Source: a virus
Lineage: Duplodnaviria > Heunggongvirae > Uroviricota > Caudoviricetes
IMG/VR virus record: IMGVR_UViG_638341087_000016
Length of the DNA: 33,462 nucleotides
Direction: 5' to 3' (one strand)
The position numbers were made by a program, and so were the translations under genes. The notes beneath the pieces are model-generated. The model was not told the DNA's origin. It saw only the letters and a list, made by a program, of their open reading frames with translations, and searched no databases. Every line of letters starts with the position of its first letter. The stretch's first letter is position 1. Positions 3,276-31,416 of this stretch are shown one piece after another.

Positions 3276-3282
3276 CGTTTAA

Positions 3283-3825
3283 TTACCCCAGCGCATCGTT
3301 GACCGGCTTTAAGACCTTTTCTTCAAACCAGCTCATTTTGTCGGCTGGCTCATCAGCTCCGGCAGCCGGACCCGCGCCCTTTGCCCCTGTTTGCTTGGTG
3401 CTGGCCGTCGCGTTGCCTTTTCGGGCCTGTCGTTTTTCCGGGACGCTGCCTTTTTCACGCAGGGTGAAACTTACCTGCCAGGCAAGGCGATCCTCCTGCG
3501 GTACGGCATCAATCTGACCGGTAAACGTGGCTTCACGAAGGTTGATAGCCGTCGCCGTCGCATTGGCGACGCGGTACTTTTTCAGTGCGCCGCTGGCTTC
3601 GGTCGCGGATGCCAGCTGGAAAAGCCGCTGTAAGACGGCTTCGTCGTCGAATGTCACCAGACCCGATACGCGCAGCTCTTTGGCCTTGATACCCTGTTCA
3701 GCATTGGCCGTGCTCGATGTCTGGCCCGACTGGTCCTTTTCCTGAAACTGCATGGAAGGTGAAACCAGCATGTTCTGCATGGCGATCCCTTCACCATCAA
3801 GCGCGAGTAATGCGGTCTGGCTCAT
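3283..3825 (-). CDS. Hypothetical phage tail/baseplate-associated protein
   Basis: 180-aa ORF in the tail operon, GC-rich like the phage core, Ala/Gly/Thr-rich; overlaps the upstream gene by 29 nt unless an internal Met is used. Confidence 0.4.
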   Translation of the reverse strand: MSQTALLALDGEGIAMQNMLVSPSMQFQEKDQSGQTSSTANAEQGIKAKELRVSGLVTFDDEAVLQRLFQLASATEASGALKKYRVANATATAINLREATFTGQIDAVPQEDRLAWQVSFTLREKGSVPEKRQARKGNATASTKQTGAKGAGPAAGADEPADKMSWFEEKVLKPVNDALG

Positions 3826-4531
3826 GTAGCATCTTCCCTAAGTCAGATAACGAATCCCCGATAAACATCATCGCGGCGGTATGCACTGCCGTTGTTTGCG
3901 GGATGCCTTTCAGCAATTCTGCGGCAGCAACGGCATAACTCCCGCTGTAACTGAATGCAAAAATATTCGCACTGGCGGCTTTCAGGTCGTCCAGTCCCTG
4001 GCTGAGCGAGGACAGCAAACCGGCCCGTTCCTGAATAAATCCCGTCACCTGGTTTTTTAGATCTGTTGTGGTGGTACTGACTGCGGCGGCCAGCTGCGCG
4101 GCGGCAACACGCTGGGCATTCAGCGCCAGCCGGTTGGTTGAGACTGATAACGGCGCACTGGCTGGCAATACATCGGCTTTAACCGGCAACTGCATTTTTA
4201 CCGTGCTGAGTTCTGCGGCGGCTGCGGCCATACGGCTTACCTGCGTAAATACCGGGGCCGGAAATACGGTGGACAGTTTATTCAGTCCCTGCATAAAAGC
4301 ATCGTGGGTATTCTCCGCCACCATCATGACGATGACATCACCGCTACCGCTACCGCTACCGCCACCGGATAACAGCTTTTTAGCAAGGTATCCCAGCGCA
4401 TTGGCCGGACTGAGATAACCGCCTGAATCGGTGTTCTGTCCCAGACCGTAAACCCAGGGATGCGCTGGCACAATTGAACAGGCCAGCGCCCCCATATCAT
4501 CAGCAATCTTTATAACCGACTCACGCCACAT
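3797..4531 (-). CDS. Hypothetical phage protein with a Gly/Ser linker
   Basis: ORF in the tail operon; start moved to the ATG at 4529-4531, which has a GGAGG about 9 nt upstream; contains SGGGSGSGSGD. Confidence 0.4.
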   Translation of the reverse strand: MWRESVIKIADDMGALACSIVPAHPWVYGLGQNTDSGGYLSPANALGYLAKKLLSGGGSGSGSGDVIVMMVAENTHDAFMQGLNKLSTVFPAPVFTQVSRMAAAAAELSTVKMQLPVKADVLPASAPLSVSTNRLALNAQRVAAAQLAAAVSTTTTDLKNQVTGFIQERAGLLSSLSQGLDDLKAASANIFAFSYSGSYAVAAAELLKGIPQTTAVHTAAMMFIGDSLSDLGKMLHEPDRITRA

Positions 4532-5108
4532 CGCCCGGAACCTCCGGCCAGTCAATATCTGGCGCATCTTCTGGCTTAATACGATTAATCAAAACCCTGT
4601 ATTTTTTCCACGCCAGCAAAAGCGCTGTTTCCTCTTCCGTTGCAATATCCAGATCAACAGCATCCTGTAATGGGGCAATTTTTGATGCAGCCAGCGCCAG
4701 AAGACTGTCTTTTTGCTGTGTAGCCTGTGTAATCTGTGCCGTTTTTTCTGCGTCAGCATCATGCACCCATTTTTTACCATTCCATTTAACAAAATGGCCT
4801 TCCGGCGCAACGGAAACAACGTCGTCAGGTAACTGACCTAATTCATCAATCGTGATGGATTTCCCGGTGAGAATGTCGTAAACAATTTTCCCGCGATGGT
4901 CTTCAACAAGTGACCATTTTTCTGACGCAGAATTAAATACAGCGACAAAACCGGCTTTCATCGGCGGTGGCGCAATATTGGTACTGTTAGCAGGCAAACC
5001 GGTATTAGCAGGGATAAACCCATCACTTTTCCCGATAAATTCATTTGTATCAGCACGCAGGTTATAGATGGTAATTGTCCGGTTTTCTCCGGTCATTTCA
5101 AAAGTCAT
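4521..5108 (-). CDS. Tail fibre assembly protein (Tfa / gpG-like)
   Basis: 195 aa beginning [48 protein letters not shown], a typical Tfa N-terminus; directly downstream of the fibre gene. Confidence 0.8.
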   Translation of the reverse strand: MTFEMTGENRTITIYNLRADTNEFIGKSDGFIPANTGLPANSTNIAPPPMKAGFVAVFNSASEKWSLVEDHRGKIVYDILTGKSITIDELGQLPDDVVSVAPEGHFVKWNGKKWVHDADAEKTAQITQATQQKDSLLALAASKIAPLQDAVDLDIATEEETALLLAWKKYRVLINRIKPEDAPDIDWPEVPGDVA

Positions 5109-7072
5109 CAGGCAAGCCTCACAATGTAGTTAAACGCAATATTTTTAACGGTATTTTCCGCATTTCCTGCGGCATGAACGGTCGCTGTATGTCCGTGATA
5201 GCCCATAACCACATAATGGTTATGCGCACCAATACCCACCCAGTGATCATGAGGGCCGATCCATGTCACATGAGCATGATTACCGCTTCCCTCAATGCGA
5301 TCTCCCGCCGCCCATGAAACATTAGACGAATGCATCCCCAGCCCCTGACCGGGGGTATCCCGGTATGCAGACGTTGCGCAATAACGAAAGTTATGTGCGT
5401 GCCACCCACCCTCAGTGGAGGATTTATTGCCGTAGTCAAAACTGGTTGTTGGTTTTGAACCATAATCAAAAGAGCTGGTGTATTTCGTCCCCAAATCGGT
5501 ATCGGAAATACTGGCTCCGTGGGTATGCGATATAACACCATCCTGTTCATACGAGAGTACCGCGCGACCGTTCGGTTTACCCTTAATCGTCTGGCCTCGC
5601 ATGTCCGGGATAATCCCCGCAGGATAGGCAATCGCTAGCAATGGATAGACCGCTTTATCAAAGGGCTGCCCCTGCATTAAGGCGTACCCTGTCGGGGTAA
5701 CATCCGATGGCCAGGGGATAGGTGCGCCGACAGGGTAAGAATCTTCTGGCATCCACGGCGTCCATGCCAGCGTTGAATACTTGCTGCGCGAATAACTGCG
5801 CGAGCTGTTGTACACACGATAAACCTGAGTGACTCCGGCACCTCTCAGTACCATCAGAGAACCCGCGCTATTCTCCGGGTAATTCATTGCTGCACTGGTA
5901 TTGTTGTTCGCTTCCTGAAAATAAAGCCCCGGTACCTGGTAATCATCCAGATTCTTATTTGCACCAATCGCTATAACCTGGCCGTCAAAAATATCCCGTG
6001 AAGTGACATTGATATCTCCATTCAGGGCATGGCCGTTCACTTTTCGTGATGCCGGAACGCGGCCATTTGCATTCTCATTCACCGCTTTTAATGCTTTTGG
6101 CGTGACGGCCATCGCTTCGGAATCACTGTTCGTTTCACTGCTTAACCGCACAAAACCCTTTTCACTGGTTGATGCATCAGGGTGATTTCGGGATTGTTCA
6201 TGCTTTTTCAGCGCATCGCTGGCCGCCTGGTCATTTAGCGTGCCTTTCGGGCGCAGGTCAGTGATATTTCCGGCAGCATCAATACTCGCCACCGCAAAGA
6301 CATAATGCTGCACACCGCCCAGCACATAATCGGCAAGATCTGCAGCAACAGTAATTTTGCTCTGTACAGCCCATTCGCTTGTTAACGTCCCGGTCCAGCT
6401 CACATCAAGCCAGATTTTTGTCGGTTTCGCGGATACTGTGATATTGAAGTTTGCGGGCAATTCGGCACGCAATCCGGCGACATATCCCGCCCCCTTTGTG
6501 ACAAAAAACTGATTGCCGGACTTTGCGACCAGATAGCCCGAATCAAAAAATGCCGCTGCGCCATACAGATCGATATTTTCCCGGCGCTGGCGTTCATCCA
6601 TTCCCACCAGTCGGGCAGTAAAATCAATCTGCCATGTCTCTGCCGGAGTGTTAATTTCGGTCGCTTCCCTGGCTCCGCTGTATTCCATCAGCATGGAACG
6701 AACAAGAACGTTTCCCTGCTGACCGTCTGCGTTTTTAATTTTTCGTTGGGTCGGGGCGTGAATAATCATCGCCAGTGTACCCGTTGCCTTATTTGCCAGC
6801 CCGATCCAGTTGAAATCAAAATCGCCCACATCCGCCCCCAGGGTAACGGAATAAACGACAGAGTTTTCATTCACAACACCGGCTTTATTCACCGCCTGAC
6901 GACAAACTATTTTATCTTCCGCTGGCGTTGTTTCAGTATTATTAATCGGCTTGTCAGCATCCAGCCCCGGAATATAAGCAAAAATAAACTCATCCAGCGT
7001 GACGGGCTGGTTATTAATTGCCTGCTGGGCTTTCCACTCTGCAAATGCTTTTGTAATGACGGCCTGTGACAT
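5108..7072 (-). CDS. Tail fibre protein (gpH-like N-terminus, His-rich C-terminal tip)
   Basis: 654 aa; conserved N-terminus and a C-terminal region with [30 protein letters not shown] histidine motifs typical of distal fibre tips. Confidence 0.8.
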
Positions 7073-7083
7073 TAATATTCCCT

Positions 7084-7683
7084 CTACTTCAAACTTGCGC
7101 TATATGTTGCTTCTGACTGGTTATTCACATCGCCCAGGGTGGCAGGCCAGCAAATATATTCCCCCTGATACCAGCCAATATTGATATTCAGTGGCAGGGT
7201 GTCGATTACTTCAAACTGGTAACGGCGGCATGTGCGCCCATATTTGCGAATGATTTCCAGCAGGAGATCGCCATTTTCCGCAACCTGGCTGCTTGTCACT
7301 CGAACGACAATCACGTCCCAGTCGAGTCCGTCCTGCCGTTCCAGTAATTCAACGTAACCAATCCCCAGTCGCTCAAAAATGGCAATAAAGCCCGCCACCT
7401 CTCCGGCCTGCTGCGCATTGATAAATGCGTAACTCACCCGCTTGCGGAAGATGTCGAGCGGCTCCCCCTTAAACCGATCGATGTCGCGCTCCCAGGCAAT
7501 CAGGTTCAACAGCGGCTCAGGGCAAACCAGCGGGTCAAACTGCTTTAACGGCCAGGTGATCCACCCGTACACCTGCGACCAGAACTTCACGCTGCCACGC
7601 AACAGCCTGGCGGGGTCGCCTTTGTTCAGCCACGACGGCAATTTCAGACCGGAAAGCAACTTCGAAAACTCAGTCATTTTCAA
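7084..7683 (-). CDS. Tail protein I-like (Mu gp48 / DUF2313-type)
   Basis: 199-aa ORF between the baseplate J-like gene and the fibre gene, the conserved position of this family. Confidence 0.6.
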
Positions 7684-8854
7684 TCTCCACCGTTAACCCT
7701 GACAGGCGCGGGACCGACAGTTCGCTGACAATATCCGTTAGTGAAAAATGCAGTGAATCGACAACCGGAAAAGCCTTGTGGATCTCGCGGCCCAGATTCG
7801 AAAAGGAATAGCGCGAATAGGGCTGCGTCTTTTTAACGTCGTAATTGGCGTTCTCGCGAAACGCGCAACGAATCAGGTCGGTAATACCGGTTTTTAACGC
7901 GCTCAGGTCTTCCGCTTCCATGTTTTCCACGCTTTTGACATAGACAGTAACCGCCAGGGTGTGACTGGTTTCCGGCATGGCATAACACTGCAGATCATCA
8001 CCGTGTCCGTGGTGGCCCTGGGTATTCACATAATCGTTAACCGCATCAATAAAGGGCTGTGATATTTCGCCGCTGTCCAGTAACAGATAAGCATTTGCCG
8101 TACCCGGCCCACGCGGGGCATCGTGCAAAAAGTAGATGCGATCAATGCTCAGGCCCAGCACGCTGGCAATCATGCTGCGGTAGATAGCGTCAGAGTGGTA
8201 ATTCCCCACCAGATTAAACTGGTTGCGGGTGCGGTCGCGCAGCTCGTCGTCGCTTTCCTCGTTAGCCCCTGGCGTAATCAGCCATTCGTCCTCATTGACC
8301 GCGCTGGCGATTCCAGCTACTGCAACAGGTAAGATCCGGTAATAGCCTGGCGCAAGGTTATAGCCGCTGCCGGTGCCGGTCGCCGTGACGGGAACCAGCC
8401 CGCTTTCAACCCCGGCAGGCAGTGTCACGTCTTCATTCACGGCCAGCACGTAAACCACGCCGTTAATGCGCTCTGTTTGCACCAGTGTTCCGGCAGGCAC
8501 GACGACCACATCCGCCGCATTCAGCTTGAAGAATCGCAGCACGCCAGCGGCAGCACTGGCCGGTTTAGGCTCGATATGAACCGCCCAGGCCAGCAGGCGC
8601 AGCATGGGACCGGTGGCAGTCGCAACAAACATATTGCGCAGAACCACATCGATCAGCGCCGCACGCAGCCATAACACCGGCGTGGTGACAATCTTCGAAA
8701 TCAGCCGCCAGAAAGGTGACATTCTCGACGTGTTTGTGACGAACCCTTCCGCCTGCACGGTGGCTTTAAATGCCGCCGTAATTTCGGCCTCTGTCGCGGG
8801 CATCCCGCTGTCATTCAGTACCTTTTCGAAATCAACGTCGGGTTTCTCAGTCAT
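7670..8854 (-). CDS. Baseplate J-like protein
   Basis: 394-aa ORF with a baseplate J-like sequence character; overlaps neighbours on both sides. Confidence 0.75.
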   Translation of the reverse strand: MTEKPDVDFEKVLNDSGMPATEAEITAAFKATVQAEGFVTNTSRMSPFWRLISKIVTTPVLWLRAALIDVVLRNMFVATATGPMLRLLAWAVHIEPKPASAAAGVLRFFKLNAADVVVVPAGTLVQTERINGVVYVLAVNEDVTLPAGVESGLVPVTATGTGSGYNLAPGYYRILPVAVAGIASAVNEDEWLITPGANEESDDELRDRTRNQFNLVGNYHSDAIYRSMIASVLGLSIDRIYFLHDAPRGPGTANAYLLLDSGEISQPFIDAVNDYVNTQGHHGHGDDLQCYAMPETSHTLAVTVYVKSVENMEAEDLSALKTGITDLIRCAFRENANYDVKKTQPYSRYSFSNLGREIHKAFPVVDSLHFSLTDIVSELSVPRLSGLTVEIEND

Positions 8855-9182
8855 AGTTAACCTCTGTACTGACAGGGCCGAAATCGTAGGTTTCCGCCGT
8901 GATATACAACCTCGAAAGGGTTTCTTCGGTGATCACTATGGTTCCTGGGACCAGACGTTCGTCGCTTTCCACCAGTAAGGACAGTTGCGTCAGCACGTCA
9001 CCGCGCATTGTCGGGCTGCGTTCACCGATCAGGCGGGTGGTGATACCGCTTTCCAGAATGCTGTGAATAATGTCCTGGGTGATGCTGTCGCGGTTATCGC
9101 AACGGCGCGGCTCGTTGCCGCTGTCCAGCGTGAAATCGCCGTCAGTGATCAAAAGGTCGATGTATAACGGTTCGGTACTCAT
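8847..9182 (-). CDS. Small baseplate protein (gpW/gp25-like or Mu gp46-like)
   Basis: 111-aa ORF immediately upstream of the J-like gene with start/stop overlaps. Confidence 0.5.
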   Translation of the reverse strand: MSTEPLYIDLLITDGDFTLDSGNEPRRCDNRDSITQDIIHSILESGITTRLIGERSPTMRGDVLTQLSLLVESDERLVPGTIVITEETLSRLYITAETYDFGPVSTEVNYD

Positions 9183-10570
9183 CCTGCGTTAAGCTCCTGC
9201 CATTCAGCCAGCTGGGCCGGGGTGATTCCATTGGGGGCGTTGATGTAGGTATCGCCCCACGTTTTACGGTTATCAACAGCGGTTTTGCTGTCGTTTTTAA
9301 CCTGACTCATCAGGCCGCCGCGTGGGATGCCTGCATTAATTCGGTTCCCCGTCAGCACGGACGGGCTGTTTAGCTTCGATGAACCTGCAGCACTGTCAGG
9401 AATGACCGCATTTGCCGGAACGGCAGCCGCTGCCGGTGGCGAAACGGTTTTCAGGTCGATGTTTACGCCGGGGATCTTGTTTAACTTCTCGACAATCCAG
9501 TTATAGGTAGACGCAAAGGTATTTTTGAGGACGTCAAAAAGTTTGCTGAATACCCCGCCGATGGTTTGTGCGAACCCTTCAAAGGTGGCAAGCGGGGAAA
9601 GACCGGCAAAGAAATCAACCACCACGGCCCAGCCGTCTGTGATGGACTGCCAGACCTGCGCAAACACCTGGCCTACCTGTTCAGCGACCGACATCACCCA
9701 GGCAAAAGCCGACGTATCCATGATTGCTGCCGCCAGTTCTTCCCAGTGGGTGATGACATACCAGACCCCCACGGCCAGAAGTGCCAGCCCGGCAACGATC
9801 AGAGTGATCGGACTCATCAGGAGTTGCATTGCCGCCCCGGCAAACATGGTCGCCGCACCGTAAACCCGCATGGCAATGGCTCCGGCCTTTAACGCGATAT
9901 TCCATGCAGCAAGCGCGATGCGGCAGACGCCCGTCCACAGCGCCAGTAATTTTGACTGGATCCACAATGCAGCCAGACCGATGCGCGTCGTCAGCAGGAA
10001 CGGACGCAACAGGTTGAGCGTCCATAACAGGAGTTTCCATGCCCCGCCCAGCACTTTTGCAATTGCGGCCAGCCCTGTCATGGTGAAGCCAAAGACCCCC
10101 ATCACGATATTGACCGCCGCCCCAGCCAACCCGAAGGACAGCACGCCCAGGGTGATGTAACCCAGCCAGCGGGCAATATTCGGGAACATATCCAGCCAGC
10201 GGGCAAATTTTGTCCCTACGTCGGCAATACGGTTCATCAGCGGCGACAGGATAGGGAACAGCGTGTTACCAATCGCCACGCGAATGGCAAAGAATGTCGC
10301 TTTGATACGTTCCCACGGCTCAGCCATTCGTTCGGCCATTTCCTGGGCGCGTTTCATCCCGTCATTTCGGCCCAGCTCGGTGATGCTGCGGTTTAATTTA
10401 TCCTGCTGGCCGTACAGCTTTTTGATAACGTCAGCACCACCACCGAACGCGGCATCCAGCGCCTGTTGTGCCTTGACGTTCCCTTCAATGCTCTGCCCGT
10501 ATTTGTTCTGGAGTTTTTGCAGAATGTCGCCCATCGGCAGCATTTTTCCGGTGGCATCGACAAAGCTCAT
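9179..10570 (-). CDS. Tail tape measure protein, C-terminal portion (downstream of the in-frame TAG)
   Basis: 463 aa with hydrophobic Gly/Ala-rich segments typical of tape measure proteins; the frame stays open upstream from 10570 to 10732. Confidence 0.7.
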   Translation of the reverse strand: MSFVDATGKMLPMGDILQKLQNKYGQSIEGNVKAQQALDAAFGGGADVIKKLYGQQDKLNRSITELGRNDGMKRAQEMAERMAEPWERIKATFFAIRVAIGNTLFPILSPLMNRIADVGTKFARWLDMFPNIARWLGYITLGVLSFGLAGAAVNIVMGVFGFTMTGLAAIAKVLGGAWKLLLWTLNLLRPFLLTTRIGLAALWIQSKLLALWTGVCRIALAAWNIALKAGAIAMRVYGAATMFAGAAMQLLMSPITLIVAGLALLAVGVWYVITHWEELAAAIMDTSAFAWVMSVAEQVGQVFAQVWQSITDGWAVVVDFFAGLSPLATFEGFAQTIGGVFSKLFDVLKNTFASTYNWIVEKLNKIPGVNIDLKTVSPPAAAAVPANAVIPDSAAGSSKLNSPSVLTGNRINAGIPRGGLMSQVKNDSKTAVDNRKTWGDTYINAPNGITPAQLAEWQELNAG

Positions 10571-10732
10571 ACCCAGCTTTTCAGCGGCAGCCGGGGCGCT
10601 GCGTAAAAACTGCTCGTAGATCCCGCTGGCCTCAGTACCCAGCGTGCGCGAAAGCGTACCCAGTACGGCGAACTGTTCATCCAGGCTGACGCCAAAGTCA
10701 GCACCGGCGCTTTTCGTCCCCTCGATAAGCTC

Positions 10733-11293
10733 CTACATGGTCTGCATTTTCACGCCGAAGTTTTGCACCATGTACGCCGTTTTTCCTGCCAGCTCTTCGG
10801 CAAAACGCACATGCCCCAGACTGGACAATTCCGCGTTGAAACGTGACGCCATCGCGCCGATGTATTCGCCTGCCTCTTCGCCGCTGGCCTTGACGCCTGC
10901 GGCCAGGGTATTGGCCGCGATGGTAACGCGGGGCAGGTCCAGATCGGACAGGCCCGCCATTGCGCCTTTCATCGCGTAGCTTGACCGGACCACATCAACG
11001 GCCCCTTTGCCGTAGCGCATACTGAATCGCATGGCTTCGCCGGACATACGCTTCAGCGCGTCCTCTGCTACGCCTTTGGAACCCACTTCTGCAAGCGCGG
11101 CGTTCATCTCATACGCCGGACCCACCACGCCCGCGATGGACTGCGCCACGCCCCAGACAGCCGCCGCACCAATCCCGATTTTTGTAAAAGACTCCTGCGA
11201 TTTTTCAGCAAAGCCAGACAGCGAAGACTGGGCCGTCTTTAATGGCCGCGTCAGCTTATCGATCAGGCTCAGGGTAAAATCCAGGTGGCTCAT
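10733..11293 (-). CDS. Tail tape measure protein, N-terminal portion ending at an in-frame TAG
   Basis: 186 aa in the same frame as 9179-10570; TAG at 10733-10735 verified from the sequence; ATG at 11291-11293. Confidence 0.7.
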   Translation of the reverse strand: MSHLDFTLSLIDKLTRPLKTAQSSLSGFAEKSQESFTKIGIGAAAVWGVAQSIAGVVGPAYEMNAALAEVGSKGVAEDALKRMSGEAMRFSMRYGKGAVDVVRSSYAMKGAMAGLSDLDLPRVTIAANTLAAGVKASGEEAGEYIGAMASRFNAELSSLGHVRFAEELAGKTAYMVQNFGVKMQTM

Positions 11294-11294: not shown

Positions 11295-11492
11295 TCAGTT
11301 TCCGTTAAATGCGATTGCTATCCCTTCCGCCGTCTTACTGGCGCGGGTCTGGGCGAAATATTCATCCAGCCACAGGGCGCGGGCGATGCTTTCTTCGTCG
11401 TCGTCTTCGTGCGGGAGGTAATAGCGGCGCAAGGCAAGGTATTGCTCCAGGGCATTCGTGCGAATGGCCGCTACCCGCGCCGTCAGTTTTTT
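11295..11492 (-). other. Candidate -1 programmed frameshift extension of the tail assembly chaperone
   Basis: mRNA reads GUA AAA AAC UGA at the chaperone end (slippery A_AAA_AAC at 11486-11492); the -1 frame is open for 63 codons to a TGA at 11295-11297; the +1 frame is also open across this gap, so the direction rests on the slippery heptamer. Confidence 0.55.
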
Positions 11493-11752
11493 ACTTCGAT
11501 CTCAAGTTTTGGGGAGTAAATTTCGTTAACCTTCTCGACGATCTGCATTTCGCAGCCCGGATAATCTTCCATCAGCTTGTTGAGCGCCTCTTTACACTCG
11601 GCATCAACAATGCGGCCCAGATACGTCACCATTGGGGCAACTTTATTGGTCATGGTCATTTCGTTAAGCAGGTTGTTGAACGCGGTTTTATTCGGCTCAA
11701 AGCTCAGATTTACGCCCGCCACGGTCATGGCGATTTTTTTCGATTTGCTCAT
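11483..11752 (-). CDS. Tail assembly chaperone
   Basis: 89-aa ORF immediately upstream of the tape measure gene, ending in a slippery heptamer. Confidence 0.6.
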   Translation of the reverse strand: MSKSKKIAMTVAGVNLSFEPNKTAFNNLLNEMTMTNKVAPMVTYLGRIVDAECKEALNKLMEDYPGCEMQIVEKVNEIYSPKLEIEVKN

Positions 11753-12045
11753 TGTGCTAATTCCTTACGTTGTCGAATGATGCCCACCAGGGCGTTATGT
11801 CGGGCGGCGCAGTCGGTATACATCAGCCGGTAGGCTTTCAGCGCCGCGTCAAAGTCACTTCCGGTCGGTCCGGCCAGACGTGGCAACGTGACCGGGCAAA
11901 GTGCCAGCTGGTTTTCCTGATAATTTTCGTTCGGCTTGATCTGCACTTTCGTTGAACAACCGGACGTAATCATCAGAAGCACAAACATTGCTAAAAACCG
12001 ATTTAATGGTTTCCGTGCGGATAACCCGTTCCGTATGAATTTCAT
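11749..12045 (-). CDS. o-spanin (Rz1-like outer-membrane lipoprotein)
   Basis: 98 aa with a positively charged N-region, hydrophobic core and MITSGC lipobox; starts inside the i-spanin gene and extends past its end. Confidence 0.6.
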   Translation of the reverse strand: MKFIRNGLSARKPLNRFLAMFVLLMITSGCSTKVQIKPNENYQENQLALCPVTLPRLAGPTGSDFDAALKAYRLMYTDCAARHNALVGIIRQRKELAQ

Positions 12046-12238
12046 TGGCCCTCAGCTCCGCGAGTTTTGCTTCCAGCGCTTCACCAGACTGCTGTGTCAC
12101 CTCAACAACAATCTGGCGCGTTTGTTCTGCCGCTTCACTGGCAGCGAGTTTCAGCTTTGCGTCGTGCCAGTCATGCGCCTGCCAGCCCGCTGACATTGCA
12201 GCTGCCAGAATCAGCAAAAGACCCAGCAAATTGCGCAT
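11855..12238 (-). CDS. i-spanin (Rz-like)
   Basis: 127 aa with an N-terminal TM helix (LLGLLLILAAAMSAGW) and a charged helical periplasmic region; follows the endolysin gene. Confidence 0.6.
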   Translation of the reverse strand: MRNLLGLLLILAAAMSAGWQAHDWHDAKLKLAASEAAEQTRQIVVEVTQQSGEALEAKLAELRANEIHTERVIRTETIKSVFSNVCASDDYVRLFNESADQAERKLSGKPAGTLPGHVATSGRTDRK

Positions 12239-12576
12239 CAGCGAACCCCGTTATGCTCAAGACTGAAATGGTTCCCGTCCGGCTTACTGAAACGTCCACC
12301 CCACGATCCGCCGATAGATTCCCAGTATTCGCCCAGGGGGCGATATGCGGCGCTGTCGGTCTGGTATTCGCCGTTAATAAACAGGTTAAAATCCACCGCA
12401 AGGCGCTGGGTATGCAGGCTGTTAGTAATGCCGCTCCCTTTTTTTGCGTTAAGCGCGGCCTGTTCCGGCGTGCGGTACGCTTCGCCAAACGTCAGGCGAT
12501 AGCCTTTTTCCTGGGCAAAATGAATCAGGCTGGCGATCATCACCGTAAAAAGTTGCTGTTTTTCACTCAGTTTCAT
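12238..12576 (-). CDS. Endolysin, peptidase M15-type
   Basis: 112 aa with Zn-ligand spacing H-x6-D (SLHTQRLAVD) and a second His (DGNHFSLEH), characteristic of M15 peptidoglycan peptidases. Confidence 0.75.
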   Translation of the reverse strand: MKLSEKQQLFTVMIASLIHFAQEKGYRLTFGEAYRTPEQAALNAKKGSGITNSLHTQRLAVDFNLFINGEYQTDSAAYRPLGEYWESIGGSWGGRFSKPDGNHFSLEHNGVR

Positions 12577-12874
12577 TGCGCTTGCTCCCCCATCGCTTGA
12601 TATACATGTCCAGGCAGCGCTTTAGCCCCGCCTCAATAAACGCACTTCCCAGAATGCCCAGGGCGCAGGCCAGCCCAATGACGACCAGTTCCGGCATATC
12701 GGGGAATTTCAGCAGCGGGATTGCGGCCAGCGGTGCGACTGCAGATCCCAGAATCATCCGCCCGACCAGCAGACGGGTTGTGATTCGCTCATTGCTGACC
12801 ATCAGTTGCCCCAGGCCGATCACGGCCCCGATAAGCAACAGCTTTTCAAGCAGTGACGTTTCTCCGTTCATCAT
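12563..12874 (-). CDS. Holin (P2 gpY-like)
   Basis: 103-aa membrane protein resembling the P2 Y holin (TTRLLVGRM, LLKFPDMPEL); directly upstream of the endolysin. Confidence 0.65.
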   Translation of the reverse strand: MMNGETSLLEKLLLIGAVIGLGQLMVSNERITTRLLVGRMILGSAVAPLAAIPLLKFPDMPELVVIGLACALGILGSAFIEAGLKRCLDMYIKRWGSKRNETE

Positions 12875-12878
12875 CGTG

Positions 12879-13334
12879 TCAGCCTTTCAGATCTCGAGTG
12901 TCACGGGCTGACAGGTACGGCACGCCGTCAATCGCGACAAAGTCCGGGCTTGTCACCATGAATTTAATTTTTTTCGTGGTTTTGCTGGCCTCGTTGGGGT
13001 TGATGTTGACGATGTCGGACAGCGTCGGAACACAGCCAAACACCTCGATTTTTTCTTCGTCATCCCCCGCATTGGCATAGAACAAAAAGTCCTTTGCCGG
13101 AATGGCTCGCCAGGAACCTGCGGCACGGGCAACGGCGGTAAACTTTTTAAAGCTCTGGGAATCGACTTCGACTTCCACATCCGCCGAAACTGACCCTTTC
13201 GTGTGGCCGTTCGGGATGCCACGCGACTGCGCAACGGCGCTGTTATCCGTAATGGTGACGGTGGCGTTTTCGACGTGAATCATGATGCTGTCGTAGTTCA
13301 CATCGAACGATCCGCCGCTAATACGTTCAGTCAT
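12879..13334 (-). CDS. Tail tube protein
   Basis: 151-aa ORF immediately downstream of the sheath gene; size and position fit a contractile-tail tube. Confidence 0.65.
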   Translation of the reverse strand: MTERISGGSFDVNYDSIMIHVENATVTITDNSAVAQSRGIPNGHTKGSVSADVEVEVDSQSFKKFTAVARAAGSWRAIPAKDFLFYANAGDDEEKIEVFGCVPTLSDIVNINPNEASKTTKKIKFMVTSPDFVAIDGVPYLSARDTRDLKG

Positions 13335-13337: not shown

Positions 13338-14480
13338 TTAGCTCTCCAGTGAGGTGTCCAGTTCGATGCTGACGCTGATTTCTTTCGCGCTCTCATACGG
13401 TCGAACCACAAGGTAAATCTGTACCGCTTCGCTACTGGTCCAGGTGATGGTGATGTCTCCGTCCTTTGGTGGCTTCACTTCGCCCGGAAATTCGACGCCA
13501 TTGATCTGGGTTGAAATCGCCATTTCACGCAGCGGCTTGCCGAAATAGGTTTCATGCGCGGCAATGCTGCCCGGTGTGCTGTTCAGTGAACGATCGGCAA
13601 TTTTGGGGATAGCACGCAGACGGACGCGTCGGGATGCTTTATCAACCACGCGCACGTTTTCAATGACCTGATAATCGCCGCCTTCAACGTCCAGGGTGCG
13701 ACCGTCAGCCCAGTAGATGCCGTCATAGTCGTGATACCACATCGGCACGCTGTAGCGGTTCACCTGCAGGGACTGCAACACGGACAGATCAATTTCGGCT
13801 CCCGTCCCGTCAACCGGCAGTTTGTCACGCCCCAGCGCGGTGACTGCGCCGGTTGCAACGCGGGCGGGGCTGTCTGCCACCGTCACCGAACGGTTACACA
13901 AGCGACCGGCCAGGACGCCGGGTTCATTGCCCCACAGACGCGGGACCAGTTGCACACCCGGTGACGCAATACCGTCCTGGAGTTGTGCCAGGCGCGTCAC
14001 ATAATCGGCCCATGCTTCGCCCTGTTTCGGCCCGCCTATCGCAAGGCCAAACCAGATAAATCGCCCATAATTAGCCTGCAAGGTGATACGCATTTCCGTT
14101 GCACGGTTGATGGTTGCCACTTCGTCGGTATCAAATACCAGGAAAACCCCTTCCACGGATGCCACGCTCTGGGCCATCTTGACCGCGTTCATCCAGTCTT
14201 CATCTGGTTTATAGCCCTCGGCTTCCTTGTCTGGTTCTGCCAGCACATGCACGTAAGCAAACCAGTTCTGACCGGCGTTATTGGCCGCTGCGGCCACCAT
14301 ATTTTTTAACGGGCTGTCTTTGTCGCCCAGGGCTTTATCCAGATCGCTGCCGGTATTCAGCGACTGGGTTTTCCCGATGTTAGTGTCGCCGTAACCCACA
14401 AAGAGGATGACGCGCTCGACGTCGTTCGTTGTGCCGTTGAAGCGGTTGTTCTGACTGACGTTGACATTCGGCCAGGTCAT
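13338..14480 (-). CDS. Tail sheath protein (non-P2 type)
   Basis: 380-aa ORF preceding the tube gene; does not resemble P2 FI as I recall it; assigned by position and size. Confidence 0.65.
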   Translation of the reverse strand: MTWPNVNVSQNNRFNGTTNDVERVILFVGYGDTNIGKTQSLNTGSDLDKALGDKDSPLKNMVAAAANNAGQNWFAYVHVLAEPDKEAEGYKPDEDWMNAVKMAQSVASVEGVFLVFDTDEVATINRATEMRITLQANYGRFIWFGLAIGGPKQGEAWADYVTRLAQLQDGIASPGVQLVPRLWGNEPGVLAGRLCNRSVTVADSPARVATGAVTALGRDKLPVDGTGAEIDLSVLQSLQVNRYSVPMWYHDYDGIYWADGRTLDVEGGDYQVIENVRVVDKASRRVRLRAIPKIADRSLNSTPGSIAAHETYFGKPLREMAISTQINGVEFPGEVKPPKDGDITITWTSSEAVQIYLVVRPYESAKEISVSIELDTSLES

Positions 14481-16223: not shown

Positions 16224-16925
16224 TTAAAGCTGGGTCAGGCCGTTAATCCGGGCGCGGATTTTTTCGCGCATGGTCTTAACTCCGGCGTTTTTGTTGTACG
16301 CCGCCGCCTGGGCCAAAAGGGCGTCGGCCTGCTCCAGCGTGTTCACATCATCCACGGCAGTGGCACGCGGCTGCCCCTTCTCGTCGCGCAGCAGGTAAAG
16401 ACCGGCGAACTTGAACCACTTCGCGTTAATGTCTTCGTGCAAACGCCACTTTTCGCGGATGTTTTCAAACGTGCGGCTGAAATAGGGTTCGATGCTGTGA
16501 CCGGCTTCCGCCTGCATGATCGCCCACTCCAGCACCGTGTCGGCCACAAAGGCAGGCAGGTTGCTTTTGAAGTTTTCCGGCGTGGCCTGGCTCTCACTGA
16601 TAGCCACGTCAGCCCAGTCCAGCGCCTTGCCCATTTCCCCCGTATCGAACAGCCAGATCACGCAGTAAACCAGGGCCGGATTGGCAAAGCGGGCATCACC
16701 GGCGAGATATGCCTCGACGGTCGGCATCCAGCGCGGCAAAAGAACGTCGCGCTTCATGTCCATGCGTTCTGCACGCGTCAGACTGCGAAGCCGTTCAACA
16801 TCCCTTTCCAGCTCCAGCATTTGAATGTGAAAGCTGACCGGCGATGCCGTCAGGGCTTCGCACTTATCCAGCGCCTTTGTGGCTTTCACGCGTGCTCGGT
16901 GTCGCTGACACGGGGTCATGGCCAT
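16224..16925 (-). CDS. M: Terminase small (endonuclease) subunit M
   Basis: 233 aa with the P2 gpM pattern; position between N and L. Confidence 0.8.
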   Translation of the reverse strand: MAMTPCQRHRARVKATKALDKCEALTASPVSFHIQMLELERDVERLRSLTRAERMDMKRDVLLPRWMPTVEAYLAGDARFANPALVYCVIWLFDTGEMGKALDWADVAISESQATPENFKSNLPAFVADTVLEWAIMQAEAGHSIEPYFSRTFENIREKWRLHEDINAKWFKFAGLYLLRDEKGQPRATAVDDVNTLEQADALLAQAAAYNKNAGVKTMREKIRARINGLTQL

Positions 16926-16927
16926 TT

Positions 16928-17950
16928 TTACGCGCCCCCTCCCGGTGCAACTTCGCCGGTCGCAAGGGTGATTTTGTCGAATGCCGCATACAGCTCGTCA
17001 TGCTCGACGCCGTAACCTTCCATGCGCAGATAGTTATTCTCGAAGCGCTTGCGGTCGTCGTTCCATTCCGCTTTACGCTTACGTGTGCCCTGCTGGGTAT
17101 AGATATGCAGGTTGTCCAGCGTGGTGACGATAAGGCGCCCCTCCGGCATAAACGGCGGGGTGTACACGGTACGGCCAGCAATCTGGCGGCCAATAAGCTG
17201 CGCGGCGACTTTCTCAGTCGGGCGATCAATCTTATTCATCATGGTGGTGGCGTCGTTGCCGATAAGGTCAGCGGAAGCCAGCACAACCAGGCGCGGGTCA
17301 TTGCGGAATGGCTCATAAATGCAGGTGTGCACCAGGTCAGTGACTGCCGCATCCAGACCAATAAAGTCAGCACCCGACGCGCCGATAGTGACGGCATCAG
17401 AAATAATCTGCTCAGATGAACGGTCTTTAACGATTTTGTGCCAGCCGATGTTGACGTCTTCGCCATTCGGGTTGGCTTCCGGGTCTGTATCTTCTGCAAC
17501 ACTCGTTCCGTTGAACGCCACGCGCAGCATATCCAGCGCGAAAGATTCGTTGCTGAATGCCTGAATACGCTGGAAGAACTCCTCTTCGCTGCCCGCGTTC
17601 GCCCAGACAACCAGCAGGGAGTAAGGCAGATACGAACCGGAATCCGTTTCTACCAGCTTGTACTCGTTACCGGACACGCCCAGGGCGCGGGAGAAACGAC
17701 CATCTTTTTTACGCCCGGTGTAAATACCCGGTTTACCGGTGCTGACCACCTGGCCGGTGATCTGGTCCACATCCAGCACATTGGGCAGCAGGCGCAGGAA
17801 CTCAGAACTTTGCAGCAGGGCATTGCGCAGCTGGGTTTCTTTCGGATTTGTCAGCGAGAAGTAGCGCGACGTGTCCACCTGGCCGTTAGCTTTCGCCAGG
17901 CCTGCGGCAAACTTACGCAGCATCTGCTCTGCTTTTGGGGTTAATTGCAT
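16928..17950 (-). CDS. N: Major capsid protein N
   Basis: 340 aa, P2 gpN-like; position between O and M. Confidence 0.85.
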   Translation of the reverse strand: MQLTPKAEQMLRKFAAGLAKANGQVDTSRYFSLTNPKETQLRNALLQSSEFLRLLPNVLDVDQITGQVVSTGKPGIYTGRKKDGRFSRALGVSGNEYKLVETDSGSYLPYSLLVVWANAGSEEEFFQRIQAFSNESFALDMLRVAFNGTSVAEDTDPEANPNGEDVNIGWHKIVKDRSSEQIISDAVTIGASGADFIGLDAAVTDLVHTCIYEPFRNDPRLVVLASADLIGNDATTMMNKIDRPTEKVAAQLIGRQIAGRTVYTPPFMPEGRLIVTTLDNLHIYTQQGTRKRKAEWNDDRKRFENNYLRMEGYGVEHDELYAAFDKITLATGEVAPGGGA

Positions 17951-17978
17951 AATCTTTTATTCCTGAAAAGAATGGCTG

Positions 17979-19040
17979 TTAAACAAACTCAAACGGTTCT
18001 TTGCTTCCGCCTGGCGCACTGCCAGGGCGGCGCGTATTGCCGTTTTCCATCGCTGACAACTTAGTCAGGACGGTAGTCAGCTGCGTGGTAAGGTTGTCCA
18101 TCTGGTTGCCAGCTGGCTGGCGACGGGCGGAAAAGTCACGGCGACGGCTGGCGCGTGGGCGCTTCGCTGGCGTCACATTGAATGACTTCATGACTTTTGC
18201 CAGGTTGGCTTTGGCGGCGCTGAATTCTTCCGCTTTGACTTCGTCTTCCGGGTTTTCGATAACGTCCTGCGCCAGCTCGGCCACCTCGTCGGCAGCATCA
18301 GCGATCTGGGCGGCAACATCTGCCACCACATCAGCGGCCTGTTCAGGGGTATCAACCGTGTCAGCATCACCCGTTGCGGCGTCTTTACCGCTTTTAAGCA
18401 GATCCAGCATTTGCTGAATGAGCGCTTTTAATTCTTCCATTTTTTCTCCGTCGCCCTCGGTGGGCTTGTCAGTGTTTGGCTCTGGGGTTGGCGTAAAATC
18501 TTTACTGGCCGAAAATAAACGCGACCAGAAAGAATTTTTTTTATCCGGTTTACTTGTCTGTAATTTTCCTAAACTGAATGTTTCCAGACTCCCGCGTTCG
18601 GCGTCCTTTTCTTCACCGGCTAAAACGAATTTAAGTTTTTCCGTTCCCAGACTTGCCGGAATATCCGTCACAGCCAGCCCAAAAAGATATTCACGACCAC
18701 TGCCTGCAAAATCAGTGACAAATTCTGCTGACGTAAATAACTTTTGCCCCTGCCGATTGGCATCAATTAAAAATTGATTTGGGATTAACTGGGCATATAA
18801 CTTCGTGACATCACCTTCCGTTTCCACTTTCAGCGCGTCCACTTCCCCCAGATTGCAGGTAAATTCACGTTCGCTGATATCGCATTGCGGATGGTGCGGC
18901 CAAATCATGGCCGTGTAGGTTTTGCGGGTGTAGGTTTCTGCCGCATCAATCAACCATTGCGGTTCAATGGTGCGACCGTCCACAGCCTTTCCAGATGTGG
19001 CAATACATAGCCAATCCGTGCGGTAATGAGATTGCGGCAT
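17979..19040 (-). CDS. O: Capsid scaffold protein O
   Basis: 353 aa; DGR.I...AET pattern and GLAVTD.PASLGTE motif as in P2 gpO; divergent from P. Confidence 0.8.
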   Translation of the reverse strand: MPQSHYRTDWLCIATSGKAVDGRTIEPQWLIDAAETYTRKTYTAMIWPHHPQCDISEREFTCNLGEVDALKVETEGDVTKLYAQLIPNQFLIDANRQGQKLFTSAEFVTDFAGSGREYLFGLAVTDIPASLGTEKLKFVLAGEEKDAERGSLETFSLGKLQTSKPDKKNSFWSRLFSASKDFTPTPEPNTDKPTEGDGEKMEELKALIQQMLDLLKSGKDAATGDADTVDTPEQAADVVADVAAQIADAADEVAELAQDVIENPEDEVKAEEFSAAKANLAKVMKSFNVTPAKRPRASRRRDFSARRQPAGNQMDNLTTQLTTVLTKLSAMENGNTRRPGSAPGGSKEPFEFV

Positions 19041-19216
19041 AACTGACCTTTAATAATGAATTTAATAACAATGATTCGTTTGTGGTGGTCAGTATTGCGA
19101 ATTGATTAAAACAGCGCGACCGCTTTATTTCTTATGTATTCGGTTATAAATACATAGCCACTTTTTACCGATATTTAATTATCAATTCTGCAAAATAATC
19201 CCGCCATAATAGCCGC
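19041..19216. promoter_or_regulatory. Divergent late promoter region between O and P with a dyad element
   Basis: 176-bp AT-rich gap between divergent head operons; dyad TTATGTAT...ATACATA at about 19133-19158 (TGT-N14-ACA). Confidence 0.4.
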
Positions 19217-21028
19217 ATGGCTAAATATTCCGATGAATTAAAAGAAGCGGCCCGCACGCTTTATATGAAAAGCTGGACGCCGAAAGATATTGCGCAGGAA
19301 CTGAATATTCCACCGCGTACAATTTACCACTGGGCTGATGTCGGGAAGTGGGCATCACTGCTGCCTGTTGAATCGGTGGAAAATGTCATCGCCCGCCGTA
19401 TCGACCAGCTCTCCCGCCGCGAGAAAAAAACAGCGCTGGAACTGGAAGAACTGCGCGATCTGATTGCTCACCATGTGAAACTCATGGCGCAGCGCAACAA
19501 ACACGCCGAAAAGCTGGCAGAAATTCAGGCCCAGAAAGCGGCTTATGATGGTGAAGGGTACTGCCTCAGCAGCGCAGGCGGGGAACCAGAGGAAAGAAAG
19601 CGCCGGTATAAGAAAAACGACGTTTCCGGTATTACACCGGAAATGCTCGACACCTGGGCGCGGGAACATCTCTTCGAGTACCAGCTGCACTGCCGCGAAC
19701 ATAAAGGCGAAGACTGGCGCTTCATTCTGAAAAGCCGACAGGTCGGCATGACCTATTATTTCGCCTGGGAGGCATTCGAAGATGCTGTCATTACCGGTGA
19801 TAACCAGGTCTTTTTCTCTGCAAGCCGCTCCCAGTCTGAAATCTTCCGTGAATACATCGTCCAGATCGCCCAGAACCATTTCGGCGTGACGCTGACGGGT
19901 AAAAATATCCGCCTCAGCAACGGCGCAATACTGCGCTTTTTGTCCACGAACGCCAGCACCGCGCAGGGCTTTAACGGCCACCTGTATGGCGATGAGGTTT
20001 TCTGGATCCCGAAATTCACGCGCCTGCACGAAGTTGCCAGCGCAATGGCAACGCATAACAAATACCGGACGACCTACTTTTCGACGCCCAGCGCGAAAAC
20101 GCACCAGGCTTACCCGGTATGGACTGGCGAAGCCTGGCGCGGGGACGACCCGAAACGCAAAGGTGTGGCGTTCCCGACAGAAAGCGAAATGCGCCAGGGT
20201 ATTCTCTGCCCGGACCAGATCTGGCGCTACATCATAACGATGGAAGACGCTATCGAAGGTGGCCTCGGTGCGCTTGTCGATATTGAACGGCTGCGCAACA
20301 AATACAGCCCGACCGCGTTCGCCATGCTCTACATGTGCCAGTTTGTTGACAGTAAGGACGCGGTGTTCAAGTTCTCCGCGCTTGTCGGCTGCGAAGTGGA
20401 CCGGGCCACATGGGGCGACTTTGATCTGACCGCTGCGCGGCCCTTCGGCAATCGCGAAGTATGGGCAGGCTTTGACCCGTCACGATCCGGCGACAACTCC
20501 ACCTTTGTGTTAATCGCGCCCCCCATAGAGGACGGCGAGCGCTTCCGCGTGCTGGCCGTCTGGCAATGGCAGGGCTTTAACTTCAGCTGGCAGGCCGACC
20601 AGATAAAGCAGCTTATGCGCCGCTTTAACATCACTTACATCGGGATCGATACAACCGGCATTGGTAAGGGCGTTTATGACCTGGTCAGCAAGTTTGCACC
20701 GCGCGAAGCCACACCCATTCTTTACAGCGTCGAAAGCAAAAACCGTCTGGTAATGAAGATGATCGACGTTGTCGAGCGTAAGCGCATCGAATGGGCAAAA
20801 GACGCCGTAGACGAAACGAACAAAGAGCGCGTCGAAATTCCGGCCAGCTTTATGGCTATCCGGCGCACGACAACCAACAGCGGCAACGCGCTGACGTTTG
20901 TTGCCGAACGTTCAGACGCGACCGGCCATGCAGATGTTTTCTTCGCTATCTCGCACGCCGTAATTAACGAACCTATCGATCACGAATATGACCGCCCATC
21001 GGGCTGGTACTTTGGGAAAGCAGCATGA
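19217..21028 (+). CDS. P: Terminase large (ATPase) subunit P
   Basis: 603 aa, P2 gpP-like; stop overlaps the Q start in ATGA. Confidence 0.85.
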   Translation: MAKYSDELKEAARTLYMKSWTPKDIAQELNIPPRTIYHWADVGKWASLLPVESVENVIARRIDQLSRREKKTALELEELRDLIAHHVKLMAQRNKHAEKLAEIQAQKAAYDGEGYCLSSAGGEPEERKRRYKKNDVSGITPEMLDTWAREHLFEYQLHCREHKGEDWRFILKSRQVGMTYYFAWEAFEDAVITGDNQVFFSASRSQSEIFREYIVQIAQNHFGVTLTGKNIRLSNGAILRFLSTNASTAQGFNGHLYGDEVFWIPKFTRLHEVASAMATHNKYRTTYFSTPSAKTHQAYPVWTGEAWRGDDPKRKGVAFPTESEMRQGILCPDQIWRYIITMEDAIEGGLGALVDIERLRNKYSPTAFAMLYMCQFVDSKDAVFKFSALVGCEVDRATWGDFDLTAARPFGNREVWAGFDPSRSGDNSTFVLIAPPIEDGERFRVLAVWQWQGFNFSWQADQIKQLMRRFNITYIGIDTTGIGKGVYDLVSKFAPREATPILYSVESKNRLVMKMIDVVERKRIEWAKDAVDETNKERVEIPASFMAIRRTTTNSGNALTFVAERSDATGHADVFFAISHAVINEPIDHEYDRPSGWYFGKAA

Positions 21029-31293: not shown

Positions 31294-31416
31294 CTGCTAA
31301 CCTCGTATCTAGATCTAACCAATGGGTTTCAAAGTTCTTTAATGGGCTTTGATGCACATTGACAACATCTAAAACCACATTAGAGAGTTTCGATAATATT
31401 AGAGGATCTTGATAAC
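31294..31416. promoter_or_regulatory. C/cox lysogeny-lysis switch region with divergent promoters and direct-repeat operator candidates
   Basis: Direct repeats AATGGGYTT at 31321-31329 and 31341-31349; consensus TTGACA at 31359-31364 on the plus strand; AGATCT palindrome near 31309-31316. Confidence 0.6.

Follow-up and report, generated by a model that had tools for sequence, protein, structure and literature searches.

Lysis genes flanked by tail tube and tail chaperone in an Escherichia coli prophage: very probably the normal cassette of an HP1-group peduovirus

Lysis genes that lie in the middle of a tail gene cluster raise the question of whether the phage is an unusual mosaic or whether such a layout is simply the rule in its group. 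The window, i.e., the whole stretch of 33,462 nucleotides that was analysed, carries four lysis genes (holin, endolysin, i-spanin, and o-spanin) on the minus strand at 11749-12874, with the tail tube gene on one side and the tail chaperone and tape-measure genes on the other. A preliminary description of the window had linked this location to a mosaic prophage with a P2 head and a non-P2 tail and had taken the M15 endolysin as pointing to modular exchange. It gave the P2 layout correctly: L/X and R/S flank Y, K, lysA, lysB, and lysC in the P2 record, with FI/FII a long way downstream. In the window, the cassette follows the tube gene. The features on which the present analysis is based are collected in Table 1.

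Table 1. Location and assignment of the features of the window.
Feature	Position	Strand	Assignment
Baseplate and fibre block	1551..9182	-	DUF2590, Baseplate_J, Tail_P2_I-like, fibre, fibre assembly, orf33-like, HP1_ORF34, orf35-like baseplate protein (Pfam)
Tape measure	9179..11293	-	interrupted by an in-frame amber
Chaperone -1 frame extension	ends 11295 (whole element 11295..11752)	-	63 aa
Tail assembly chaperone	11483-11752	-	Pfam Phage_TAC_10, E 1.2e-30
o-spanin (Rz1/LysC-like lipoprotein)	11749..12045	-	98 aa precursor; lipobox TSGC, Cys30
i-spanin (Rz-like)	11855..12238	-	127 aa; PHROG 1152 Rz-like spanin, E 2.5e-37
Endolysin	12238..12576	-	112 aa, M15 (putative LAS-type) zinc peptidase; Pfam Peptidase_M15_4
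Holin	12563..12874	-	103 aa, P2 gpY family; Pfam PF04550 Phage_holin_3_2, E 9.2e-21
Tail tube, HP1 Orf24 family	12879..13334	-	Pfam PF10772 Phage_HP1_Orf24, E 6.3e-51
Tail sheath, DUF2586 / HP1 Orf23 family	13338..14480	-	Pfam PF10758, E 8e-132
S-like tail completion protein	14483-15178	-	Pfam Phage_tail_S
R-like tail terminator	15175-15651	-	Pfam P2_Phage_GpR
Head completion L	15648-16181	-	Pfam Phage_GPL
P2-type head and packaging module	16224..22409	both	minus: terS, capsid, scaffold; plus: terL, portal, Ogr/Delta-like activator
cox-C-int module and att core	31031..32986	.	P2-like; att core 32965-32986 = right prophage end

The four genes display the sequence features of a canonical cassette of the lambda SRRzRz1 and P2 Y-K-lysB-lysC paradigm: a transmembrane holin with a charged C-terminus, a soluble enzyme, and an i-spanin with an overlapped o-spanin. 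The holin is also matched by PHROG 175 (holin, E 2.6e-34) and has three hydrophobic segments in a KD scan (residues 7-27, 35-55, and 57-84) and a charged C-terminal tail, KRCLDMYIKRWGSKRNETE. In tblastn searches, it is 38% identical to P2 Y and has no match to the HP2 and K139 holins. The endolysin scores 40.1 bits against Peptidase_M15_4 (gathering cut-off, 25) and contains the M15 motif SxHxxxxAxD with a C-terminal D/ExxH. The corresponding residues (S53, H55, A60, D62, D100, and H103) are invariant in 19/19 sequences, which is weak evidence by itself because the alignment is shallow (81-96% identity). Neither a signal nor a SAR segment was found in the endolysin, which is predicted to have no TM segment, since its maximum 15-residue hydropathy is only 1.35. 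A comparison of its sequence with the PDB gave chance matches only.

The i-spanin has an N-terminal membrane anchor (hydrophobic residues 4-18). The o-spanin gene starts within the i-spanin gene in another frame, with GAGG 5 nt 5' of its ATG, and ends 106 nt past it. The same overlapped architecture is found in SI7, ESSI-2, two other enterobacterial prophages, HP2, K139, and P2 lysB/lysC. The lipobox cysteine, Cys30, is kept in five enterobacterial homologues, and an analogous ORF is present in HP2, K139, and P2; PHROG 456 (Rz-like spanin) matches the protein with E 5.9e-06. Its score against the NCBIfam P2_Rz1 model is under the model's cut-off, so the o-spanin was assigned from these features and not from a family score. 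Gene identities, gene order, conservation, and motifs are shown by the sequence, and Pfam, PHROG, and the lipobox bear out the holin, M15 endolysin, and overlapped spanins named in the preliminary description. E. coli PV16-126 carries a cassette with 100% identity to the whole of this one.

Pfam matches of the flanking genes likewise agree with the order given earlier, i.e., L, R-like, S-like, sheath, tube, lysis genes, chaperone, and tape measure, followed by the baseplate genes. The tail module is of the HP1 type, with a DUF2586 sheath, an HP1_Orf24 tube, DUF2590 (E 3.5e-42), and HP1_ORF34 (E 1.1e-53). The sheath family, PF10758, is present in 76 phage records, every one of them HP1-like. 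The baseplate block is colinear with HP2 orf28-orf35, and the orf35-like assignment is supported by PHROG 2258 (baseplate protein). In the chaperone gene, there is a -1 frameshift heptamer, A_AAA_AAC, at 11492-11486. The heptamer and the extension are kept in SI7, HP2, K139, PV94, and E. coli L016; as a control, the same script finds the annotated P2 E/E' site. The head and packaging module is of the P2 type, with divergent portal/terminase and scaffold/capsid operons, and was assigned from the RefSeq annotation of the same prophage (GPO scaffold, P2-family capsid, gpM, terL, and portal) and from Pfam Ogr_Delta.

The cassette is tightly packed within the long late operon. The gap after the tube gene is 4 bp, the holin and endolysin genes overlap by 14 nt, and stop and start codons overlap at the endolysin/i-spanin (TGATG) and o-spanin/chaperone (ATGA) junctions. 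A search of 9000-19400 gave no sigma-70-like promoter (6.0 +/- 2.2 expected), the cassette showed no terminator on the minus strand, and neither Rfam nor tRNA scans produced a match in the window. With this packing and apparently no promoter or terminator of its own, the cassette would be co-transcribed with the tail genes. Transcription would proceed from the divergent late promoter region at 19041-19216, with the Ogr/Delta-like zinc-finger protein as the presumed activator. This region contains no TGT-N12-ACA, the P2 Ogr consensus, and the nine matches to the consensus against 6.6 expected are uninformative. The three-TMD gpY-type holin would build up in the inner membrane and then trigger, and triggering would free the cytoplasmic 112-aa M15 zinc peptidase, which would cut the peptide stems of peptidoglycan. 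The i-spanin/o-spanin pair would disrupt the outer membrane last. Lambda and P2 serve as the paradigms from which we infer this lysis timing, the co-transcription, and the enzymatic specificity.

The element is a prophage, as the preliminary description had it. It is bordered by a 22-bp att core repeat, and its insertion site in E. coli lies between trhP(yegQ) and yegR; in L005, the core direct repeat lies 192 bp before the window start. The cox-C-int module shows 71.6% DNA identity to P2 over 1977 bp, the P2 attP core is matched at 26/28 bases, and Int is 86% identical to P2 Int. Irrigatiovirus-like prophages occupy the P2 att site in ~19 of the 5426 complete E. coli genomes. AbiH is located at one prophage end, and the window also encodes an uncharacterised membrane protein of 930 aa, at the established P2 defence hotspot. 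Both represent cargo where P2-like phages carry anti-phage systems.

The gene order around the cassette is widespread. In the RefSeq record of SI7, the late genes are arranged as in the window (sheath, tube, holin, M15 endolysin, spanin, chaperone, and tape measure), and positions 9000-19100 of the window are 96.3% identical over 100% to SI7, SW3, and SW5. The same order occurs in eight Peduoviridae genera, represented by SI7, HP2, K139, ESSI-2, phiO18P, phi3, C5a, and PV94, with hosts that include Haemophilus, Vibrio, Aeromonas, Pseudomonas, Pseudoalteromonas, and enterobacteria. The order recurs, with the same holin and M15 pair, in additional prophages of E. coli and Serratia. The arrangement is therefore ordinary, because it is standard in the genus Irrigatiovirus and in the whole HP1-like branch of the P2 family, and the earlier view of an unusual mosaic, which was to fall if a described genus had exactly this order as its norm, has to be given up. 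In HP1, the hol and lys genes, characterised experimentally as encoding a pinholin and a SAR muramidase, were described as adjoining the tail tube gene ORF24 (PMC7312051). A 2023 paper divides Peduoviridae by tail proteins into an "HP1 group" and a "P2 subgroup" and lists Irrigatiovirus in the former (PMC10612066, Table 2). The layout is already known: it is the published HP1-group arrangement, re-discovered in an E. coli prophage. For the HP1 group, this place between tube and chaperone is the ancestral one, and only the content of the slot differs among genera. Judging from the sequence comparisons, the four genes are very probably the normal lysis cassette of an HP1-group Peduoviridae (Irrigatiovirus) prophage at the P2 attachment site in E. 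coli. The value of this result is small in itself; the practical gain is correct annotation, as the o-spanin is absent from the SI7 and E. coli RefSeq records.

Could a P2-type head have been joined recently to a foreign, Mu/SfV-like tail, with the cassette brought in at the junction? Such an event would explain why head proteins are 24-41% identical to P2 (33-52% to HP2), whereas the sheath, tube, chaperone, tape measure, DUF2590, and baseplate J proteins have no BLAST-detectable similarity to P2, and why the sheath and tube belong to Pfam families other than those of P2 FI and FII (Phage_sheath_1 and Phage_tube). However, head and tail proteins rank the relatives alike (SI7 > ESSI-2 > HP2/K139 > P2), so no recent head/tail recombination is visible, and the arrangement is common to eight genera across diverse hosts. 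P2-family R-like and S-like genes lie within the supposedly foreign tail block. A Mu-like tail was rejected in a comparison with Mu: in tblastn searches with the late proteins (E <= 0.01), matches were limited to short fibre and fibre-assembly segments, and the sheath, tube, chaperone, tape measure, and baseplate proteins had no match to Mu (L, M, gp42, and gp44-48). Moreover, the literature treats the tail difference as the ancient split between the HP1 group and the P2 subgroup and the head/tail discordance as a clade-wide feature of the former (PMC10612066). A recent recombinant is thus largely refuted and highly improbable. What stands of this head/tail reading is a P2-type head with several tail proteins that have no BLAST match to P2, a combination neither unusual nor recent. 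Modular exchange is seen not between head and tail but elsewhere, in the cassette content, which varies between genera, and in the P2-like cox-C-int-att region.

The normal-cassette explanation is compatible with, and refined by, the idea that the slot position is ancestral and its content was replaced in the enterobacterial lineage, where a gpY-type holin, a minimal M15 enzyme, and a two-component spanin would have taken the place of the HP1/K139 pinholin and SAR-lysozyme, with a P2-subgroup phage as a possible holin donor. We give this idea an even chance. At least three lysis systems occupy the slot (gpY-type holin with M15 and spanins, HP1 pinholin with SAR lysozyme, and the pesticin-like muramidase carried by C5a), together with occasional morons (a DksA-like zinc finger and DNA methyltransferases); in phiO18P and some E. 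coli prophages, a methyltransferase is inserted between holin and endolysin. HP2 and K139 have Phage_holin_2_3 and Phage_lysozyme, the endolysins of the window and ESSI-2 are Peptidase_M15_4, and the window holin belongs to the P2 Y family, with 45% identity to the ESSI-2 holin region. Endolysin identity to ESSI-2 reaches 84%, against 35-61% for neighbouring genes. Nevertheless, the holin shows no greater identity to P2 Y than the head proteins show to P2, so vertical descent, with the replacement on the HP1/K139 side instead, is just as possible. Slightly more tentative is the suggestion that the tube/chaperone junction is a conserved exchange point of HP1-group phages and that the enterobacterial lineage took its holin from the P2 subgroup. 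It is rather unlikely that the cassette is effectively a relic in a decaying, non-inducible prophage. The tape-measure gene has an amber TAG at 10735-10733 (codon 187 of 704 by translation), where SI7 has CAG and L005 has the C. In a 61-mer around this codon, 18/18 complete E. coli genomes with the stretch differ from the window by one base, and the amber is private to the window sequence. This suggests that the window copy may not make virions, and the cassette may therefore not be used productively in it; the sister copy, in PV16-126, is instead damaged by a frameshift in a replication gene. On the other hand, all other genes are intact, including the four lysis genes, only 12 substitutions and 3 indels separate the window from PV16-126 over 33.5 kb, and the one base in question may be miscalled or its effect suppressed by a supE host.

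A normal HP1-group cassette can finally be compared with the known systems. In both P2 and the window, the cassette is not standalone but lies inside a late structural operon, the spanin genes are overlapped, and the holins are of the same family. P2 has lysA, and no lysA-type gene is present in the window. As stated in the preliminary description, the endolysin is an M15 enzyme and not of the P2 type (Pfam and BLAST indicate no relation to P2 gpK), and the gene order is unlike that of P2, whose tail genes are divided between the V and F operons, the latter with FI/FII downstream of the baseplate genes.

The HP1 group has its prototype in the Haemophilus phages HP1/HP2 (Hpunavirus), whose late region is colinear with the window from the portal to orf35. 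In HP2, the cassette is flanked by orf24 (tube) and orf26 (chaperone), the same neighbours as in the window; the sheath and tube are 52% and 51% identical, respectively, and the chaperone has the same -1 frameshift site. The HP1 cassette consists of a pinholin (Phage_holin_2_3) and a SAR muramidase (Phage_lysozyme), whereas the window has a three-TMD gpY-type holin of another Pfam family and a cytoplasmic M15 peptidase without a hydrophobic N-terminus. Cronobacter phage ESSI-2 and the Escherichia ESSI2_ev phages (Seongnamvirus) have the window's order, similar holin and endolysin sequences (identities given above), and an overlapped spanin pair. ESSI-2 belongs to another genus, and most of its structural proteins are only 35-69% identical to those of the window.

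The closest relatives are the Salmonella phages SI7, SW3, and SW5 (Peduoviridae, Irrigatiovirus), with 92.6-96.7% nucleotide identity over ~74% of the prophage. Lysis proteins of SI7 and the window are 86-100% identical, and the tail fibre is 64% identical. The cox-C-int region, P2-like in the window, is different in SI7 (Int is only 51% identical), methyltransferases occupy the place of the 930-aa ORF, and AbiH is carried by the window in contrast to SI7, in which the tape-measure gene is intact. The alignment to SI7 covers 24,669 nt with a mean identity of 95.1%; the product of identity and aligned fraction comes to 0.71 when taken over the prophage and 0.78 when taken over SI7, a slim margin above 70%. 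By ICTV convention, a genus unites phages with at least ~70% identity across the length of the genome, and a species those with at least 95%. Because the similarity is above 70% and below 95%, the prophage falls in the genus of SI7 and not in its species, and it is probably a separate species within Irrigatiovirus.

The structural genes of the prophage lie on the minus strand, and window positions 11749-12874 hold four of these genes, which form a lysis cassette. The holin has a charged C-terminus and three hydrophobic segments, the endolysin has no hydrophobic segment, and the i-spanin carries an anchor at its N-terminal residues 4-18. Together with the lipobox of the o-spanin, these properties support the four assignments. 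The o-spanin ORF starts within the i-spanin gene in another frame and extends 106 nt past its end. An overlapped lipobox ORF of this kind is kept in SI7, ESSI-2, two more enterobacterial prophages, HP2, K139 and P2 (lysB/lysC). The ORF (positions 9849-10145 in the SI7 locus) is missing from the SI7 RefSeq and E. coli PGAP annotation. In HP2, a 90-aa lipobox ORF that overlaps the 3' part of orf25 at its end (about 20044-20316 in the HP2 locus) is likewise unannotated, and spanins were not recognisable in HP1 to the authors of PMC7312051. No lysA-type antiholin gene is present in the window.

Features of the prophage and their window coordinates
Feature	Position	Strand	Evidence or remark
AbiH-family abortive-infection gene	1-966	+	PADLOC E 2.1e-29; GC 37%
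Tape-measure gene	9179-11293	-	704 codons
In-frame amber, codon 187	10733-10735	-	CAG to TAG
Slippery heptamer A_AAA_AAC	11492-11486	-	9 nt ahead of chaperone stop
o-Spanin (lipoprotein ORF)	11749-12045	-	98 aa; lipobox TSG-C30
i-Spanin	11855-12238	-	127 aa; PHROG Rz-like spanin E 2.5e-37
Endolysin	12238-12576	-	112 aa; Pfam Peptidase_M15_4, 40.1 bits (cut-off 25)
Holin	12563-12874	-	103 aa; Pfam Phage_holin_3_2 E 9.2e-21; PHROG holin E 2.6e-34
Divergent region	19041-19216		putative late start
Ogr/Delta-like protein	22083-22409		Pfam E 3.5e-16
cox-C-int-att module	31031-32987		71.6% DNA identity to P2
att core	32965-32986		22 bp

Homologues of the endolysin fall into 3482 clusters. Among the best 120 listed, those with a name from their source are called either "M15 family metallopeptidase/peptidase" or "hypothetical protein", and every organism named belongs to the Enterobacterales. 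The residues S53-x-H55-x6-D62 and D100-x2-H103 are invariant in an alignment that is shallow (81-96% identity).

The cassette follows, in order, the L, R-like, S-like, sheath (DUF2586) and tube (Phage_HP1_Orf24) genes and is followed by the chaperone (Phage_TAC_10), tape measure, DUF2590, Baseplate_J, I-like, fibre, fibre assembly and HP1 orf33-35 homologues. The tube and holin genes are separated by 4 bp, the holin and endolysin genes overlap by 14 nt, and the endolysin/i-spanin and o-spanin/chaperone junctions read TGATG and ATGA. No sigma-70-like promoter was found in 9000-19400 (shuffles give 6.0 +/- 2.2), nor was a minus-strand terminator within the cassette. The slippery heptamer of the chaperone gene leads into a -1 frame ORF of 63 aa that ends 2 nt short of the tape-measure start. 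The heptamer and the extension are kept in SI7, HP2, K139, PV94 and one other E. coli prophage; in a control run, the frameshift script also recovered the E/E' site annotated in P2. In database records, the extension stands as a separate entry, named DUF6890 or hypothetical protein. The cassette is thus inserted between the tube gene and a genuine chaperone/tape-measure unit, and most likely shares the transcript of the late operon.

The preliminary description of these genes was accurate in every element. Its view that a lysis cassette inside the tail cluster is unusual does not stand, as exactly this order is the norm in a described genus, on the evidence of the SI7 record and of PMC7312051 and PMC10612066 on HP1 and its group. 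Window positions 9000-19100 match the Salmonella phages SI7, SW3 and SW5 at 96.3% identity over the full length. In the RefSeq record of SI7, the type of Irrigatiovirus (Peduoviridae), the order is tail sheath, tail protein, holin, endolysin, Rz-like spanin, chaperone, tape measure, DUF2590 and baseplate J. Overall, 24.7 kb align with SI7 at a mean identity of 95.1%, and the product of identity and aligned fraction (0.71-0.78) indicates one genus and separate species. Seven more phages are annotated with this order: HP2 (Hpunavirus), K139 (Longwoodvirus), ESSI-2 (Seongnamvirus), phiO18P (Bielevirus), phi3 (Phitrevirus), C5a (Catalunyavirus) and PV94 (Vulnificusvirus). It also occurs in E. coli and Serratia prophages located via more distant M15 endolysin copies, and all 76 phage records of the sheath family are HP1-like. 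In HP1 itself, hol and lys are flanked by ORF24, the tail tube gene, and by ORF25, and were shown by experiment to encode a pinholin and a SAR endolysin (PMC7312051). The arrangement is thus already known and is the norm of Irrigatiovirus and the HP1 group.

The idea of a mosaic with a P2 head and a non-P2 tail was compared protein by protein in a tblastn table. The head and packaging proteins share 24-41% identity with P2, 33-52% with HP2 and 35-63% with ESSI-2. The sheath, tube, chaperone, tape measure, DUF2590 and baseplate J proteins gave no tblastn match in P2 or Mu; their identity is 32-63% to HP2 and 43-69% to ESSI-2. Relatives are therefore ranked alike by both modules. Judged from these sequence identities, the head/tail discordance with P2 belongs to the whole clade and not to this prophage. 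Tail proteins split Peduoviridae into a P2 subgroup and an HP1 group that includes Irrigatiovirus and Seongnamvirus, and the tail module of one clade is a much older paralogue acquired in ancient times (PMC10612066). The mosaic reading is partly supported, but as the unremarkable norm of a named genus and of the HP1 group.

Both window ends are matched in 19 of 5426 complete E. coli genomes, where the prophage sits between trhP(yegQ) and yegR. The core CCCTTACACGGGCTTATTTTTT matches the P2 attP core, and a second copy lies 192 bp ahead of the window start in E. coli strain PV16-126, so the window lacks only about 170 bp of a prophage of roughly 33.2 kb. At its left end, inward of the att core and before the last baseplate gene, the prophage carries the AbiH gene, which SI7 lacks. 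A 930-aa ORF (30% GC) occupies the gpA-gpQ locus, a defence hotspot of P2-like phages (Rousset et al., PMC9122126). Hydrophobic segments, predicted to be transmembrane, lie within its first ~160 residues; no domain is recognisable in it, and its confident AF2 model (pLDDT 85) matches generic helical repeats only. Homologues are limited to Enterobacterales; a Serratia copy (33% identical) occupies the corresponding position in the remnant of a P2-like prophage. Where the tape-measure gene has an amber, which truncates its protein, SI7 and 18 of 18 complete E. coli genomes holding the stretch have a sense codon. The window copy may be tail-defective, or the amber may be a base-call error. The otherwise 99.9% identical sister prophage of E. 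coli O103:H2 PV16-126 has a 1-nt deletion splitting the replication endonuclease gene (position 29895 of its locus, window 27013), which is intact in the window. The copies differ in their inactivating lesion.

The observed identity, order and conservation of the genes can be read with the lambda and P2 paradigms. Late transcription would start in the divergent region, presumably via the Ogr/Delta-like activator; no P2 consensus activator site was found for this region. The holin would build up in the inner membrane and then trigger, the cytoplasmic M15 peptidase would be freed to cut the peptide stems of peptidoglycan, and the spanin pair would disrupt the outer membrane.

Real module exchange is seen at the cox-C-int-att module and in the content of the lysis slot. 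The integrase shares 86% identity with P2 Int but only 51% with that of SI7, and the window matches 26 of 28 bases of the P2 attP core. This is an HP1-group phage with a P2-subgroup integration/immunity module, using the yegQ/yegR site. In the lysis slot, a DNA methyltransferase gene lies between holin and endolysin in phiO18P and some E. coli prophages, and a DksA-like zinc-finger gene lies between tube and holin in several genera; the slot thus collects morons too (loci L016-L018, 4249-5001; L009, 6151-7227). The holin belongs to one family with P2 Y (Phage_holin_3_2, 38% identity), and the M15_4 endolysins of ESSI-2 and the window are 84% identical, well above the adjoining genes. Unlike the window, HP2 and K139 carry Phage_holin_2_3 and Phage_lysozyme in this slot, and C5a carries a pesticin-like muramidase.
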